64,000 bases of DNA, taken from positions 69,812 through 133,811 of the forward strand of contig JANWLD010000001.1 in assembly GCA_025451045.1 (NCBI GenBank), in the 5' to 3' direction. Every line of letters begins with the position of its first letter. The first letter of the stretch is position 1. Shown one piece after another: positions 6,003 to 10,397 of this stretch. The DNA is from Candidatus Saccharimonadales bacterium. GTDB taxonomy: Bacteria > Patescibacteriota > Saccharimonadia > Saccharimonadales > 2-12-FULL-41-12. Below the pieces are notes generated by a model that saw only the letters and a list, made by a program, of their open reading frames with translations, searched no databases and was not told the origin of the DNA. A program made the position numbers and the translations under genes.

Positions 6003-6831
6003 CTTCTCCCTATATTTAGCCGGAGGCCAAGCAATCGAGGCCAAACGCACGCTGGTTATGGGGATATTGAATGCCACGCCCGACTCATTCAGCGACGGCG
6101 GCGAACTGGAAAATGAAGCCGTGATAAAAAAACGCGTACAAGAAATGATCCAATCCGGTGCTGATATTTTAGATGTGGGCGGCGAATCCACCCGTCCCGG
6201 CCATCAAAAAGTCAGTGAAAAAGAAGAGCTGGGACGTATTTTGCCGGTGATAGGGGTCATCCGAAATGTTTCAAAGACTATCCCTATCAGTGTTGATACC
6301 CAGAAAGCCTCAGTTGCAAAAGCGGCCCTACAAGCCGGCGCCAGTATGATAAATGACGTCAGCGCCCTTTCCGACCGCAAAATGGCAAATGTAATCAATG
6401 ATTTTGGTTGTTCAGTAATCTTGATGAGAAACAAACCGACCGGTCAAGATGTCATCAAAGGCTGTAAAGAACAGTTTGAAAAAATAGTAAAAAAAGCCGA
6501 AAAAGAAGGTGTTGGCAAAAACAAAATCTTGCTTGACCCGGGCCTAGGTTTCGGTGATTTAAAAAAAGCTGACTACAAAACCTCGCCAGGTTCCGACCCA
6601 GCTGCCAATATTCTGCTAATTCTCGGACTACAAAAATATTCGCTTGGTTTGCCGGTAGTTATCGGAGCTAGCCGCAAACGCTTCTTGGGCGATATTACAG
6701 GCGTAGAAAAAGCCAAGGACCGGCTGACCGGATCAATCGCCGCTGCCATTATGGCTCAGCAGGCTGGGGCGGCTATTGTCCGTGTCCATGACGTAGCCGA
6801 AACCATCCAAGCCTTCAAAAATCTATCATAA
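5995..6831 (+). CDS. folP: Dihydropteroate synthase
   Basis: 278 aa. GILNATPDSFSDGG, DVGGESTRPG and DPGLGFG pterin-binding motifs. Confidence 0.9.
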   Translation: MNSFSLYLAGGQAIEAKRTLVMGILNATPDSFSDGGELENEAVIKKRVQEMIQSGADILDVGGESTRPGHQKVSEKEELGRILPVIGVIRNVSKTIPISVDTQKASVAKAALQAGASMINDVSALSDRKMANVINDFGCSVILMRNKPTGQDVIKGCKEQFEKIVKKAEKEGVGKNKILLDPGLGFGDLKKADYKTSPGSDPAANILLILGLQKYSLGLPVVIGASRKRFLGDITGVEKAKDRLTGSIAAAIMAQQAGAAIVRVHDVAETIQAFKNLS

Positions 6832-6866
6832 ATTTTATCCCTCGGGTCCTGTCCCGATAGAATCCT

Positions 6867-6897
6867 CCCGCGAATTTCCACGATATTCATTCGCGGG
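6867..6897. terminator. Hairpin between convergent folP and trpA (possible bidirectional terminator)
   Basis: cccgcgaat (6867-6875) pairs with attcgcggg (6889-6897), a perfect 9-bp stem with a 13-nt loop. It is nested inside a second perfect 9-bp pair, ctcgggtcc (6841-6849) with ggacccgag (6928-6936). There is no clear U-tract. Confidence 0.4.
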
Positions 6898-6924
6898 TCC
6901 CTTCCATTCGGACCACCCGAAAAT

Positions 6925-7650
6925 TTAGGACCCGAGGTTTTTGACAAGTTTTAGGCCGGTTTTTACACCGGATTTTTCAACTTCACGGATAATGGCACTG
7001 CCTACGATTGCAATATCACCGATTCTTAGAGCTTCCTCCACGTCATGCCGGGATGAGATTCCAAAACCTATCATAATTTGGGCACTTGACCTGTGTTTAA
7101 TATAAGCCACTAATTGATGCAGTTCACGAGTGTTATTGTAGGAATTGCCGGTAATGCCACGTTGACTGGTAACGTAAACATAAAGTGGTGACTCCTCTAA
7201 TATAGTATTCAGTCGTTTCTCCTCCATGCCGGGGCTTAGCACCGGTATAAGTCTCAGGTTGAGACCTTGTGTGCGCTTAACTAACTCAGTGTATTCCGGA
7301 CTGTCGTATGGAAGATCGGGGATAATTAGACCTTTTGCGCCACAGGTTGAAGTTCGATCGCAAAATTTTTCGAAGCCGTAATGCCGCACTTTCTGAATGT
7401 AACTCATCAGGTAGACGTCGCAGTCCAGGTTGGCCTTTTGTATCAGTTCGAAACTAGCGGCCGTGGTCATGCCGCCCCCCAGTGCTATGTCATTGGCCTT
7501 CATAATCGTTTCGCCGTCAGCTATCGGGTCAGAAAACGGAATCTGCACCTCGATTATCCCGACGCCGAGCTTCTGCATCCCCAACATCAGCTCGATACAC
7601 TCATCAGCCGACGGATAGCCTGCCACCACATGAGTCATAATGTTTTTCAT
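6925..7650 (-). CDS. trpA: Tryptophan synthase alpha chain
   Basis: 241 aa. The EVQIPFSDPIADG motif and a GFGIS phosphate-binding loop. Confidence 0.9.
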   Translation of the reverse strand: MKNIMTHVVAGYPSADECIELMLGMQKLGVGIIEVQIPFSDPIADGETIMKANDIALGGGMTTAASFELIQKANLDCDVYLMSYIQKVRHYGFEKFCDRTSTCGAKGLIIPDLPYDSPEYTELVKRTQGLNLRLIPVLSPGMEEKRLNTILEESPLYVYVTSQRGITGNSYNNTRELHQLVAYIKHRSSAQIMIGFGISSRHDVEEALRIGDIAIVGSAIIREVEKSGVKTGLKLVKNLGS

Positions 7651-7818
7651 TTTTTCACTCCTAAAACAACAGTCTTTTGGATTGGGATGCCTGCAAACGC
7701 CCCGGCAAAGTGAGTTATTTTAACTTGAAAGAGTCTGCTAGCGCTTCCCTTGAATTTCCTGCCATAAGCAAGAAATTCATAGGCGAAAAAGCGCTCTTGA
7801 AAGTAAAATAACGAACGC

Positions 7819-9309
7819 CTATTCATAGGTTTTAAGCTCCTGGTTTAAAAACTTCTTAAAATCATCTCTGGCAAAGTGCTTCGCGAGCGTAAACAAATCC
7901 TTGTCACCGCGGCCGGAAATGTTGATAACTATTTTTTTATCCTGTTTCATGTCCTTGGCCAGCTTGATGCCTTCACTAACCGCATGGGCTGATTCTAAAG
8001 CCGGGATGATACCTTCTTTTTTGGCCAAAAGTTCTACCGCGGCAAGCGCCTGCTTGTCACTGGCCCGGACAAATTCCACCCGTCCCGTATCGGCCAATTC
8101 AGCCAATTCCGGCCCGATACCGATATAATCCAACCCCGCCGCTACACTGTGGGTCGCCGCGCTGTTGCCGTCTTTATCTTGCAAAAAATATGACTTATAG
8201 CCTTCCATGATACCCAGTTCCGCGCCCGGAAATCGAGCGGCGTGTTGGCCCGATTTATTTGACTTGCCGCCAGCTTCAACACCGACTAATCTCACATTTT
8301 TATCATTTAAAAAGCCATGAAACGCTCCAAGTGCGTTACTTCCGCCGCCTACGCAGGCGACTATCGCATCAGGACTGCTGCCGAGCTGGTGTCTTATTTC
8401 CCGGCTAATGACAGATTGGAAATCACGGTTCATCCTCGGATACGGATCCGGTCCAAGGCAAGAGCCAATAACATAATGGGTATCGTCGCTGGTAGCCAAC
8501 CAGTCGCGGATAGCGCCGCTGACCGCGTCTTTGAGTGTTTTTGAGCCGTATTTTATCGGTATTACCTCAGCGCCAAGCAGTTCCATGAGCACCACGTTCG
8601 GCCGTTGGCGGTCAATATCGACTTGCCCCATATAAATCGTGCAGGCAAAGCCGAGTTTGGCGGCCACTGTCGCCGTTGCCACGCCATGCTGGCCGGCGCC
8701 GGTTTCAGCAATCAGCCGTTTTTTGCCCATTTTTTTGGCTACCAAGGCTTGCCCTAAGCAATGGTTTATTTTGTGCGCGCCGGTGTGATTCATACCTTCG
8801 TTTTTCAGATAAATCCGCGCGCCGCCGACATGCTCGCTGAGATTTTTGGCATATGTCAGCGGAGTCGGCCGGTTATTGTAATGTTTTTGTAGATCTTCTA
8901 ACTCTGCCAAAAAAGCCCGACTATTTTTTAGCGAATCATAAGTTCTGGCTAGTTTTTCCAGTTCGCCCTGCAACATTTCCGGCACATAACGGCCGCCGTA
9001 TTTCCCAAAGTAGCCGGATTTGCTAGCTTCTGGCTTTGGCTTGGGCATTTCCGGTTCTTTTAATACTTTAAAATAATCTTTAGCAACCAGTTTTGAGCCT
9101 TTTGTCACCGTTGCCACGCCCACGCCCAAATCTTCAGCTATCATATGGTGGTTCTCGCCGCTTAGCAGTTTTTTGACAATTTCAACCCGCTTTGGCAGGT
9201 TCTCTTTGTCTTTATCGGATGTAATTCCGTCCATAAAATCAAAGAAATCTTCAAAACCACGGATGGAATAAACAAACTCAACAAAATCCTTAAAGCTTTT
9301 GCCTTTCAT
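7819..9309 (-). CDS. trpB: Tryptophan synthase beta chain with N-terminal TrpR/YerC-like HTH domain (fusion)
   Basis: 496 aa. Residues from about 100 to the end are canonical TrpB (LKNEGMNHTGAHKINH with the PLP lysine, and GGGSNALG). The first ~95 aa (FFDFMDGITSDKDKENLPKRVEIVKKLLSGENHHMIAEDLGVGVATVTKGSKLV) match the TrpR-related YerC/YecD HTH pattern. Confidence 0.9.
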   Translation of the reverse strand: MKGKSFKDFVEFVYSIRGFEDFFDFMDGITSDKDKENLPKRVEIVKKLLSGENHHMIAEDLGVGVATVTKGSKLVAKDYFKVLKEPEMPKPKPEASKSGYFGKYGGRYVPEMLQGELEKLARTYDSLKNSRAFLAELEDLQKHYNNRPTPLTYAKNLSEHVGGARIYLKNEGMNHTGAHKINHCLGQALVAKKMGKKRLIAETGAGQHGVATATVAAKLGFACTIYMGQVDIDRQRPNVVLMELLGAEVIPIKYGSKTLKDAVSGAIRDWLATSDDTHYVIGSCLGPDPYPRMNRDFQSVISREIRHQLGSSPDAIVACVGGGSNALGAFHGFLNDKNVRLVGVEAGGKSNKSGQHAARFPGAELGIMEGYKSYFLQDKDGNSAATHSVAAGLDYIGIGPELAELADTGRVEFVRASDKQALAAVELLAKKEGIIPALESAHAVSEGIKLAKDMKQDKKIVINISGRGDKDLFTLAKHFARDDFKKFLNQELKTYE

Positions 9310-9314
9310 ATCTT

Positions 9315-9334
9315 CATACTAGCATACTAGTATG
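9315..9334 (-). promoter_or_regulatory. Candidate trp-operator-like site upstream of the trpB fusion
   Basis: catACTAGcatACTAGtatg, 6-25 nt upstream of the trpB ATG. It has two CTAG cores exactly 8 bp apart (9319 and 9327). 9323-9334 (catactagtatg) is a perfect 12-bp palindrome. Confidence 0.35.
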
Positions 9335-9371
9335 CAATATAAAAGTCTCTTTTCGTTTCGGCTCTGATAAA

Positions 9372-10397
9372 TTAAGCAGCCATTGGTAGATTGCCTGCCC
9401 TGGTCAAAGCTATCTCAACGTCCTGTTTCATTTCAGCGGCTGATTTATACCTATCTTTAGAATCTTTTTTCGTCGCCCTTTCTACAATGGATACTATGTC
9501 ACTCGGAATCCCTCTCTCCAGTAATAAATCGAGGTCAATCGGTTCTTCTTTGTGCCTTCTAGCAATTTCTTTCGCACTTATTCTCTTTTTGGCTTCTTCT
9601 TGCGATATATTTTCATCAAAAATACTGTGTCCCGGTTCGGCATACTCCATTACTATCAAGTCTTTCATCTCTTCTTCTGTTACTTCATAAGGCAAGCGCC
9701 CGGCTAACATTTGATAGTAAGAAATACCTAAACTGTATATATCGCTGCTAATATCGACCCGTCCATTGCCAAGCTGTTCGGGAGACATATAATCAATAGT
9801 GCCGATAGAGGCACTTTTAGTCACCATCATTCCAAATCTCTGATAATGTTCCCAGGCTTTTATATGTTCTTTGGAATTTTCCTCAATTTCCCCGGACTTA
9901 ACCCGCTCGCTATATGGCCTAGGGGTGGCAGCTCCGAAATCGGTTAAAACTGCTCTTAGGGGAGCTTGGATGATATAGTTATCCGGCTTTAAATCGCGAA
10001 AAACAAAGTCATTCTCGTGCACTTCCACTACGGAAGCCAGCATGGAGTATAGCAACCTGCTAGCCGTTTCCGGCATACAAAAATTAGCAAAATTTGGTAT
10101 ATTTCTCCTGCCCAGTACAGGTTCCATGACTATATGGGGCGTAAAATGATCCGAATTATCTTCACGGATTTTTGTTACTTGTGGGTGGTCGATCAAGTTT
10201 TGTATCTGTGCTTCAGCCAGCAGGCTGGCTTTAGCTATTTCGTCAGCATCTTCCGGTAATTGTTTAATTACTACCAGTTCGCCAGTTTGTTTTTCTTCAG
10301 CATAAAATACCCTAGACATTCTAGATGCTTGGATAGGAAAAACTTCCCGATAGCCGGGTATCGCCTCAAGATCTGAGGCAGTAGGTGAATTTGGCAT
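9372..10397 (-). CDS. Ser/Thr protein kinase (Hanks type)
   Basis: 341 aa. VIKQL (VAIK-like), FRDLKPDNYI catalytic loop, TDFG and DYMSPEQ activation segment. Confidence 0.85.
   Translation of the reverse strand: MPNSPTASDLEAIPGYREVFPIQASRMSRVFYAEEKQTGELVVIKQLPEDADEIAKASLLAEAQIQNLIDHPQVTKIREDNSDHFTPHIVMEPVLGRRNIPNFANFCMPETASRLLYSMLASVVEVHENDFVFRDLKPDNYIIQAPLRAVLTDFGAATPRPYSERVKSGEIEENSKEHIKAWEHYQRFGMMVTKSASIGTIDYMSPEQLGNGRVDISSDIYSLGISYYQMLAGRLPYEVTEEEMKDLIVMEYAEPGHSIFDENISQEEAKKRISAKEIARRHKEEPIDLDLLLERGIPSDIVSIVERATKKDSKDRYKSAAEMKQDVEIALTRAGNLPMAA

Follow-up and report, generated by a model that had tools for sequence, protein, structure and literature searches.

Comparison with described systems

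The closest described counterparts of the locus discussed here are the tryptophan repressor TrpR of Escherichia coli, the trpRBA operon of Chlamydia trachomatis, and a short list of proteins in which a DNA-binding domain and an enzyme share one polypeptide. The locus lies in a 64,000-nucleotide stretch of contig JANWLD010000001.1 from a Candidatus Saccharimonadales bacterium, hereafter the window. It encodes, in one open reading frame (ORF), a TrpR-family domain followed by a tryptophan synthase beta subunit (TrpB). This trpR::trpB fusion gene is followed by trpA and preceded by a TrpR-type operator.

E. coli TrpR, with operators at trpEDCBA, aroH and trpR, belongs to the same Pfam family and has the same fold as the N-terminal part of the fusion. 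Its operator is likewise built from ACTAG/CTAG units 8 bp apart that overlap the -10 region, and the repressor's own promoter bears such an operator and is hence autoregulated. Of the DNA contacts, A80, T81 and T83 are retained, and of the pocket residues, R54 and G85. Unlike the free E. coli protein of 108 residues, the repressor here is the N-terminal 85 residues of a TrpB; judging from the model, the arm at the N-terminus and the greater part of helix F are missing. R69 is replaced by His and R84 by Lys, and the score stays below the TIGR01321 cut-off. The operators differ as well: the centre reads TATG here and TTAA in E. coli trpO, the outer bases are ATAC instead of GTAC or GAAC, and the site in the window is shifted by 8 bp in the upstream direction with respect to the -10, in front of a probably leaderless mRNA.

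In Chlamydia trachomatis, TrpR acts at the promoter upstream of trpR in the trpRBA operon (PMC6504234, PMC7755916). The gene order trpR-trpB-trpA and the operator at the trpR promoter correspond to what is found here, as do the reduced genome, the retention of the last pathway step alone and the likely salvage of indole (PMC6504234, PMC7755916). Unlike in our locus, chlamydial TrpR is a separate protein, and a 348-bp intergenic region carries a second promoter, an operator for YtgR and an attenuator. Here, trpR and trpB form one reading frame and this intergenic region is absent.

The trigger enzymes BirA, PutA, NadR and archaeal RbkR also combine a DNA-binding domain and a pathway enzyme in one polypeptide, often with autoregulation (PMC5397151). 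The fusion has this architecture, and the conservation of both halves suggests that both would be active. Sensing in trigger enzymes is done by the enzyme domain; the DNA-binding domain of the fusion comes from a family whose members bind a co-repressor themselves, and it occurs as a free protein in close relatives. Another member of the family is HisR (YerC/YecD), which is of the same size, is often encoded at the head of the operon under its control and recognizes a 20-bp palindrome (PMC9413887). Its TTTA-N6-TAAA operator and his genes (PMC9413887) differ from the CTAG-type operator and the trp linkage of the fusion, which scores 22 bits with the HisR-type model TIGR02531 and 37 bits with that of TrpR.

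A further likeness, in outline, is to the MocR/GabR regulators, in which an N-terminal helix-turn-helix (HTH) is linked to a dimeric domain with the fold of enzymes dependent on pyridoxal 5'-phosphate (PLP). MocR proteins combine a winged HTH of the GntR type with a domain resembling fold-type I aminotransferases that is mostly no longer enzymatic. The partner in the present protein is instead of fold-type II, has a full TrpB equivalog score and is the product of the operon's only trpB.

The components and the logic are thus already known: the TrpR operator, the trpRBA order of Chlamydia (PMC6504234) and trigger enzymes (PMC5397151). Full-text literature searches on TrpR/TrpB fusions, on TrpR or trpB in Saccharibacteria or Patescibacteria, and on PF01371 returned no description of the fusion; their coverage is incomplete, which makes this absence of evidence only, in agreement with the initial annotation of this DNA, whose author was not aware of a described case either. 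A textbook repressor and a textbook enzyme covalently joined on a recognisable trp operator would make a compact one-protein feedback loop. It would also be an amino-acid biosynthetic addition to the short list of enzyme-repressor hybrids formed by BirA, PutA, NadR and RbkR. We consider it likely that the fusion acts by classical tryptophan-dependent autorepression, with the TrpR domain tethered to TrpB as the first gene product of the trpR::trpB-trpA operon, and that an ancestrally separate, autoregulated trpR was fused in frame.

A conserved fusion of TrpR and TrpB

The initial annotation had described a trpB gene with an N-terminal extension, a linker and a complete TrpB. This layout is borne out by the ORF, by the Pfam families PF01371 and PF00291, and by the linker EPEMPKPKPEASKS (coordinates in Table 1). 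The C-terminal part matches the NCBIfam model for trpB, TIGR00263, over residues 99-478 with 555 bits against a cut-off of 392.45. It contains the PLP-lysine motif NHTGAHK, which is invariant across the 38 fusions compared; beside HTGAHK, about 200 further columns are invariant. With an equivalog score, the PLP-lysine motif and an adjoining trpA, the protein has what is expected of a tryptophan synthase beta subunit.

The architecture is not restricted to the window. A search with the full-length protein, such as the initial annotation had proposed among related genomes, retrieved an identical protein (P0004, NCBI) and 39 more 90%-identity clusters, with lengths of 474-529 residues and 70-81% identity to the query. 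At least 40 clusters from NCBI, JGI, ENA and Logan assemblies therefore combine PF01371 and PF00291 without interruption. Several of these proteins stem from metagenome-assembled genomes named "Candidatus Saccharimonadales bacterium", and their database name is solely "tryptophan synthase subunit beta". At the DNA level, the fusion is present on the independent contigs L007-L010, L133 and L211-L214 (L and P numbers are our handles for loci and proteins). How such searches are set up matters: the N-terminal part alone, used as query in a word-indexed protein search, gave three short proteins and missed the fusions, so that the full-length query was required. A library of representatives at 50% identity hides the fusions, presumably under plain TrpBs, and revealed the TrpR::TrpC protein P0132. 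There is also an annotation gap, since at least 46 clusters are labelled just TrpB or TrpC while the regulator goes uncalled.

Could two adjacent genes have been merged by a sequencing or assembly frameshift, or by a lost stop codon? Some loci invite the question: L002 is full of frameshifts, L001 has an in-frame stop, and in L215 two separate, overlapping genes are one frameshift away from a fusion. Against this stand the uninterrupted reading frame in 40 distinct clusters from four sources and linkers that differ between clusters in both length and sequence. The 40 clusters rule out an assembly artefact, and we regard the probability of any such origin as negligible. The TrpR-TrpB fusion is genuine and conserved. 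The stop in L001 is an in-frame TAA at 6328-6333 that takes the place of the Glu codon in GGRYVP-E-MLQ and is directly followed by an ATG; it could mean that the gene is a pseudogene, that the read is wrong or that the fusion has been split again in nature.

The linker itself is rich in Lys, Pro and Glu. In the full-length model, residues 87-112 have a predicted local distance difference test score (pLDDT) below 50 and are flanked by two folded parts, and across 40 fusions neither sequence nor length of the linker is conserved. An internal start that would yield free TrpB was also considered and rejected, because the linkers of the fusions share no Met.

Identity of the N-terminal domain

Profile searches place the N-terminal domain in the TrpR family. 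Pfam Trp_repressor PF01371 matches residues 5-75; against a gathering score of 27 bits, the whole protein reaches 30.3 bits and residues 1-100 alone reach 33.7 bits. Among the NCBIfam models, TIGR01321 (TrpR) scores 36.8 bits and thereby higher than TIGR02531 (YerC/YecD) with 22.4 bits; both scores lie under the equivalog cut-offs of 67.25 and 42.2 bits, respectively. It would be wrong to label the domain as an equivalog of the TrpR of gamma-proteobacteria. When 25 N-terminal domains were combined into a profile and compared with the PDB, E. coli TrpR chains were found at about 1e-10, followed by the HisR/YerC-like structures 3g1c (2e-6), 3frw (9e-4) and 3kor from S. aureus (0.019).

Structure prediction leads to the same family. 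The AlphaFold2 model of residues 1-98 has a pLDDT of 88 and five helices (3-15, 19-29, 32-49, 54-61 and 65-76). In a Foldseek search with this model, the top 11 matches were all E. coli TrpR, with a probability of 1.0, template-modelling (TM) scores of 0.66-0.72 and root-mean-square deviations of 2.1-3.2 Å; the best were the operator complexes 1TRR and 1TRO. The model thus shows the all-helical TrpR fold with its D-E HTH. As a monomer prediction, the model resembles the open conformation of one TrpR chain taken from the dimer. The comparison of residues 1-100 with TrpR and YerC structures that the initial annotation had proposed thus ends with E. coli TrpR, in profile as well as in fold. Its YerC/YecD label does not fit: YerC is HisR, a histidine repressor with a TTTA-N6-TAAA operator, so the name is misleading here, and HisR identity is rejected given the 22.4 bits with TIGR02531, the CTAG-type operator and the trpB/trpA neighbours. 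Score and operator are better as TrpR (36.8 against 22.4 bits; 1e-10 against 0.019 for 3kor), and the sequence comparisons assign the domain as TrpR-like, not YerC/HisR-like.

The HTH segment IAEDLGVGVATVTKGSKL, invariant or nearly so in the 38 fusions, is the most conserved part of the domain, with I57, A58, L61-G64, A66, T67, T69, G71 and K73 invariant. This conservation points to selection on DNA binding. In a profile alignment to E. coli TrpR, with E. coli numbering anchored on Trp19, the DNA contacts (PMC9413887) A80, T81 and T83 are identical and I79V, R84K and R69H differ. Two of these changes, R69H and R84K, would fit a domain that no longer binds DNA and serves instead as a tryptophan-binding feedback module or as a dimer clamp, with the operator left to a free TrpR encoded elsewhere, for which there would be room beyond the visible 64 kb. 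Several observations speak against this. The recognition helix is the best-conserved segment. His at the position of R69 is normal in those stand-alone TrpRs of the candidate phyla radiation (CPR) that are located behind the same operator. The fused loci, inspected to about 4 kb on either side, contain no second trpR, and the operator vanishes wherever the domain vanishes, which ties the two together. We regard a domain without DNA binding as very unlikely. The residue at position 69 showed no covariation with the outer operator base, His prevailing with either A or G.

The ligand pocket, with positions taken from PDB entries, is kept in part: in the alignment R54, T81 and G85 are identical, and T44S, M42I and R84K are conservative. 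The Lys at the position of R84 is found in 11 of 11 distinct fused sequences and in none of the other TrpRs examined, all of which have Arg; it hints at an adaptation, possibly an altered ligand pocket. L-tryptophan as co-repressor is not assured, because R84K, S88L, N87K and L41G change the pocket and the TrpR family also includes the histidine-sensing HisR. The fusion might accordingly repress its own operon in response to another effector, be it indole, an indole derivative or no small molecule at all. Support for this comes from the partly kept pocket (R54, T81 and G85 retained; S88L, N87K and L41G different), from HisR as a family member that senses histidine (PMC9413887) and from the gene content: the operon consists only of trpB and trpA, and trpC is absent from the window, so the organism may salvage indole, which would then be a sensible signal. 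Yet the domain is tied to complete or partial trp operons across the Patescibacteria, for which the end product is the usual signal, and the pocket is better conserved than in HisR, where two of nine positions are conserved (PMC9413887). An effector other than tryptophan therefore appears unlikely to us, and tryptophan-dependent repression stays the preferred reading.

Operator and promoter

Directly upstream of the fusion, the promoter region is just 62 nt long because the gene for a Ser/Thr kinase ends at 9372; on the coding strand it reads cttttatattgcATACTAGTATGCTAGTATgaagatATG. Within it, the plus strand has catACTAGcatACTAGtatg at 9315-9334, corresponding to CATACTAGTATGCTAGTATG on the coding strand. 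Two CTAG cores lie 8 bp apart from centre to centre, and CATACTAGTATG (9323-9334) is a perfect 12-bp palindrome. String, coordinates, spacing and palindrome had all been given in the initial annotation and are exact on re-reading. The 18-mer ATACTAGTATGCTAGTAT ends 6 nt and the 20-mer 5 nt before the ATG.

The resemblance to the E. coli trp operator, also put forward at the outset, holds up. The E. coli core is ACTAGTTAACTAGTA, the trp promoter-operator TTGACAATTAATCATCGAACTAGTTAACTAGTACGCA lies upstream of trpL in 5421 of 5426 genomes, and ACTAGT-N3-CTAGTA is common to trpO and the site in the window. The published gamma-proteobacterial TrpR motif TGTAcTnGTnnACnAgTACA likewise consists of GNACT half-sites 8 bp apart (PMC9413887). 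ACTAG/GNACT half-sites at this distance, overlapping a predicted promoter, are what characterizes an operator of TrpR proper, and they are present here. One E. coli strain, Z1323HEC0477 (L087), has an extra 8-bp operator unit ACTAGTTAACTAGTTAACTAGTA upstream of trpL and thus three CTAG cores instead of two.

Within the window alone the motif is not significant, as one CTAG-N4-CTAG is observed against 0.37 expected and at least one occurs in 31 of 100 shuffles. The significance of the operator rests on the comparison across loci. Among 12 fused loci, 11 (window, L001, L002, L007-L010, L133 and L212-L214) carry the 18-mer without a single change, while the flanks between fused loci share 25% identity 19-30 nt upstream of it and 41% in the 6 nt downstream; the co-conservation of ACTAG repeat and fusion, suggested earlier as something to look for, is thereby found. 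Related loci totalling 596 kb contain 69 CTAG-N4-CTAG sites, of which 60 fall within the 80 nt that precede a trpR start. The site had been called cognate-looking, which is right in that it is of the TrpR type; it is not particular to the fusion, since about 80 stand-alone trpR genes across the Patescibacteria have this design too. On these comparisons we take it to be the ancestral trpR operator of the Patescibacteria.

The operator appears to overlie a sigma70-like promoter, spanning its spacer and -10. In fused loci, a hexamer resembling TTTACA or TTGATA is located 17 nt upstream of TAGTAT, and the start codon follows 6-8 nt after. A survey of 83 distinct trpR loci, in which at least 8 of 12 matches were required of a promoter, found sigma70-like promoters in 69, with the -10 ending 3-12 nt before the start and in 44 cases 6-7 nt before it. 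ACTAGT occurs within 45 nt of the start in 76 of the 83 loci, CTAG-N4-CTAG in 56 and a sequence resembling Shine-Dalgarno in one. Such a layout is typical of leaderless mRNAs. No Shine-Dalgarno sequence is seen ahead of the fusion's ATG. With 6 nt between the -10 and the ATG and with no such sequence, the fusion mRNA is probably leaderless. An Rfam search of 6800-9500 gave no match and hence no known attenuator, T-box or riboswitch.

Proposed autorepression and possible roles of the tether

How would such a protein control its own operon? The N-terminal domains of two chains would pair as a TrpR-type dimer, helped by the dimerisation of TrpB within the α2β2 complex. The dimer, together with a co-repressor that is most likely L-tryptophan, would bind the 18-bp operator. 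Since this operator covers the promoter spacer and the -10 hexamer, the bound repressor would occlude both and exclude RNA polymerase. When tryptophan drops, the domain would leave the DNA and the operon would be expressed. Repressor and enzyme would be made 1:1, therefore feedback would be tight and re-repression should be fast. The comparisons demonstrate the architecture with its conservation, TrpR family membership in both sequence and fold, the constancy of the operator and its place in the promoter, and the occurrence of separate, fused and TrpR-less states. We infer DNA binding, dimerisation, the identity of the co-repressor, the leaderless transcript and the order of evolutionary events.

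Autorepression is the natural reading because the site is found together with the TrpR domain and overlaps with promoter sequence, and the autoregulation suggested in the initial annotation is predicted on the same two grounds. The link to tryptophan is provided by stand-alone CPR trpR genes that head trp operons and by the same operator preceding trpBA and trpEG in another CPR group.

A number of observations weigh against this picture. The domain stays below the TrpR equivalog cut-off (36.8 against 67.25 bits), Arg69, which contacts a base in E. coli TrpR, is His, and the pocket carries R84K, S88L, N87K and L41G. The -35 is weak; a consensus promoter scan of the window called no promoter here, missing the site because of this hexamer, and the promoter is deduced from relatives. 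The most divergent fusion (L211, P0041) retains 14 of 18 operator positions and one intact CTAG. The identical 18-mer also occurs in promoters of GntR-like regulator genes on unrelated high-GC contigs (L096, L129, L152, L154 and L163), so the sequence alone is not diagnostic of TrpR. Finally, a second, free trpR could be present elsewhere, as our view is of 64 kb of the genome.

A different proposal is that the enzyme is the sensor, so that the catalytic or conformational state of TrpB, its assembly with TrpA or tryptophan captured on leaving the active site would control DNA binding, with pathway flux as the signal. Its arguments are that the covalent 1:1 link has been maintained through 20-30% protein divergence, that the Lys at the position of R84 is limited to the fused clade (11 of 11) and may indicate an altered pocket, and that BirA, PutA, NadR and RbkR sense through their enzyme domains (PMC5397151). 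However, a linker that varies and is predicted to be disordered speaks against a defined interface between the domains, stand-alone TrpRs rely on an identical operator, the same domain is joined to another enzyme, TrpC, in another lineage, and it has been lost without loss of TrpB; all these points fit a self-contained regulatory module. We consider enzyme-coupled sensing quite unlikely. The initial annotation had raised the possibility that a ligand in the active site or product site of TrpB governs DNA binding. This part of it finds no support and is disfavoured by a domain that partly keeps its own ligand pocket, by the flexible and non-conserved linker, and by stand-alone relatives on the same operator.

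A related and likewise improbable possibility is that the tether as such is functional, the TrpR domains reading the local output of tryptophan or the state of the α2β2 synthase rather than the bulk pool. The fusion would then be a flux-sensing, self-repressing enzyme with the Lys at the position of R84 as part of the adaptation, and the recurrent fusion of TrpR to a first enzyme, TrpB or TrpC, would speak of selection and not of accident. Although the organisms are uncultivated, the question is open to experiment now, because synthetic versions of the protein and its operator can be studied in E. coli.

Evolution of the fusion

The synteny groEL ... trpB-trpA-folP-folK is found in three states. 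In L215, a separate trpR (95 residues) and trpB share an ATGA overlap behind the operator GTACTAGTATACTAGTAT; the window, L211 and L213 have the fusion; and L208, L209 and L216 have trpB alone with neither TrpR nor operator. Because these last relatives keep trpB, catalysis can do without the TrpR domain, which is what one would expect if it is a regulator. The three states within one synteny offer a natural series on what a tether adds to a repressor.

In neighbour-joining trees, which are without support values, the TrpR domains of the TrpB fusions group in a single clade and those of the TrpC fusions in a second, each amid stand-alone TrpRs of Saccharibacteria. Unfused TrpBs are nested within the clade of fused ones. 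The simplest history, which we put forward tentatively, would begin with an ancestral trpR-trpC-trpB-trpA operon that lost trpC; a small frame-restoring change at the overlapping trpR stop and trpB start (ATGA) could then have produced the fusion, and later the domain and the operator would have been lost together in some lineages. Since the domain is lost along with its operator and is present on two different enzymes, it resembles a portable regulatory module.

Operon neighbours

The second gene of the operon encodes tryptophan synthase alpha, and the order of fusion and trpA recurs in L007-L010 and L211-L214. The catalytic Glu and Asp of IEVQIPFSDPIADG in its product align with E49 and D60 of Salmonella TrpA. 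A trpC gene was not found in the window.

Table 1 Features of the trpR::trpB-trpA locus (positions in the window)
Feature	Position	Strand	Remarks
trpA, tryptophan synthase alpha, 241 aa	6925..7650	-	PF00290, 198 bits; second gene of the operon
Structured trpB-trpA spacer	7651..7818	-	168 nt; part of the transcript
trpR::trpB fusion gene	7819..9309	-	496 aa; stop codon 7819-7821; ORF list, PF01371 and PF00291
Tryptophan synthase beta domain, residues 99-496	7822..9015	-	TIGR00263; PLP-lysine motif NHTGAHK; coordinates from tblastn
Linker, residues 86-98, EPEMPKPKPEASKS	9016..9054	-	Flexible; length and sequence vary among fusions
TrpR-family domain, residues 1-85	9055..9309	-	Pfam, profile against PDB, AlphaFold2 model, Foldseek
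TrpR-type operator ATACTAGTATGCTAGTAT (coding strand)	9316..9333		Two CTAG cores 8 bp apart; near-palindrome, 8 of 9 arm positions match
Inferred -10 hexamer TAGTAT	9316..9321	-	Forms the final six bases of the operator, in its right half; ATG follows after 6 nt
Weak -35-like hexamer TTTATA	9338..9343	-	16-nt spacer; relatives have TTTACA, TTGATA or TTGACA there
Ser/Thr protein kinase gene, PF00069	9372-10397	-	Directly upstream of the trp promoter

The spacer between the two genes may be either an RNA with a structure of its own or an inserted element. It folds with a minimum free energy of -52 kcal/mol (z = -3.75) and a 13-bp hairpin, is single-copy in the window, and is almost identical in L007 (5488-5684) though the proteins are just about 81% identical. 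About half of the relatives lack it, their trpB and trpA overlapping by 5-11 nt instead. The kinase gene is also the upstream neighbour in L001; other relatives with the same synteny have a different gene there.

TrpR across Patescibacteria

Stand-alone trpR genes encoding 79-107 residues (mostly 81-88) with the same promoter-operator occur in Saccharibacteria and in Roizman-, Levy-, Dojka-, Woese- and Gottesmanbacteria. In Saccharibacteria, trpR heads trpR-trpC-trpB-trpA (L015-L018 and L029); elsewhere it heads trpB or longer trp operons. A metagenome scan with the 18-mer added further trpR loci and an additional fusion. In the Patescibacteria, whose gene regulation is almost unstudied, trp operons that are headed by trpR and apparently leaderless are widespread.

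The domain is also fused to TrpC (indole-3-glycerol phosphate synthase), in proteins of 365-370 residues followed by free trpB and trpA, as in L025 (3992-5095; P0132). Such TrpR::TrpC fusions form six clusters in Saccharibacteria, P0132 and P0239-P0243.

The metagenome scan also brought up a distinct CPR group, which has trpS, a TrpR of 94-98 residues and a TTGCTT-17-TAGCAT promoter with ATACTAGCATACTAGTAT, followed by a leader of 200-450 nt (L092, L140, L143, L173, L187, L189, L191 and about 25 more loci). The genes downstream of this leader are trpBA, trpEG or genes resembling Asx-tRNA synthetases or Asp/Glu racemases. The layout looks like a wider TrpR regulon.

Two minor observations concern more remote contexts. 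In L003 (6319-8062), and also in L004 and L005, a stand-alone trpR with a perfect operator precedes a protein of 352 residues without Pfam match and a gene of the Asp/Glu-racemase family, so that the downstream genes are not trp genes. Eight proteins of 267-763 residues (P0129, P0136, P0152, P0174, P0204, P0207, P0220 and P0227) contain 5-8 tandem HTH repeats that match the TrpR query, and from their sequences they look like arrays of HTH modules.

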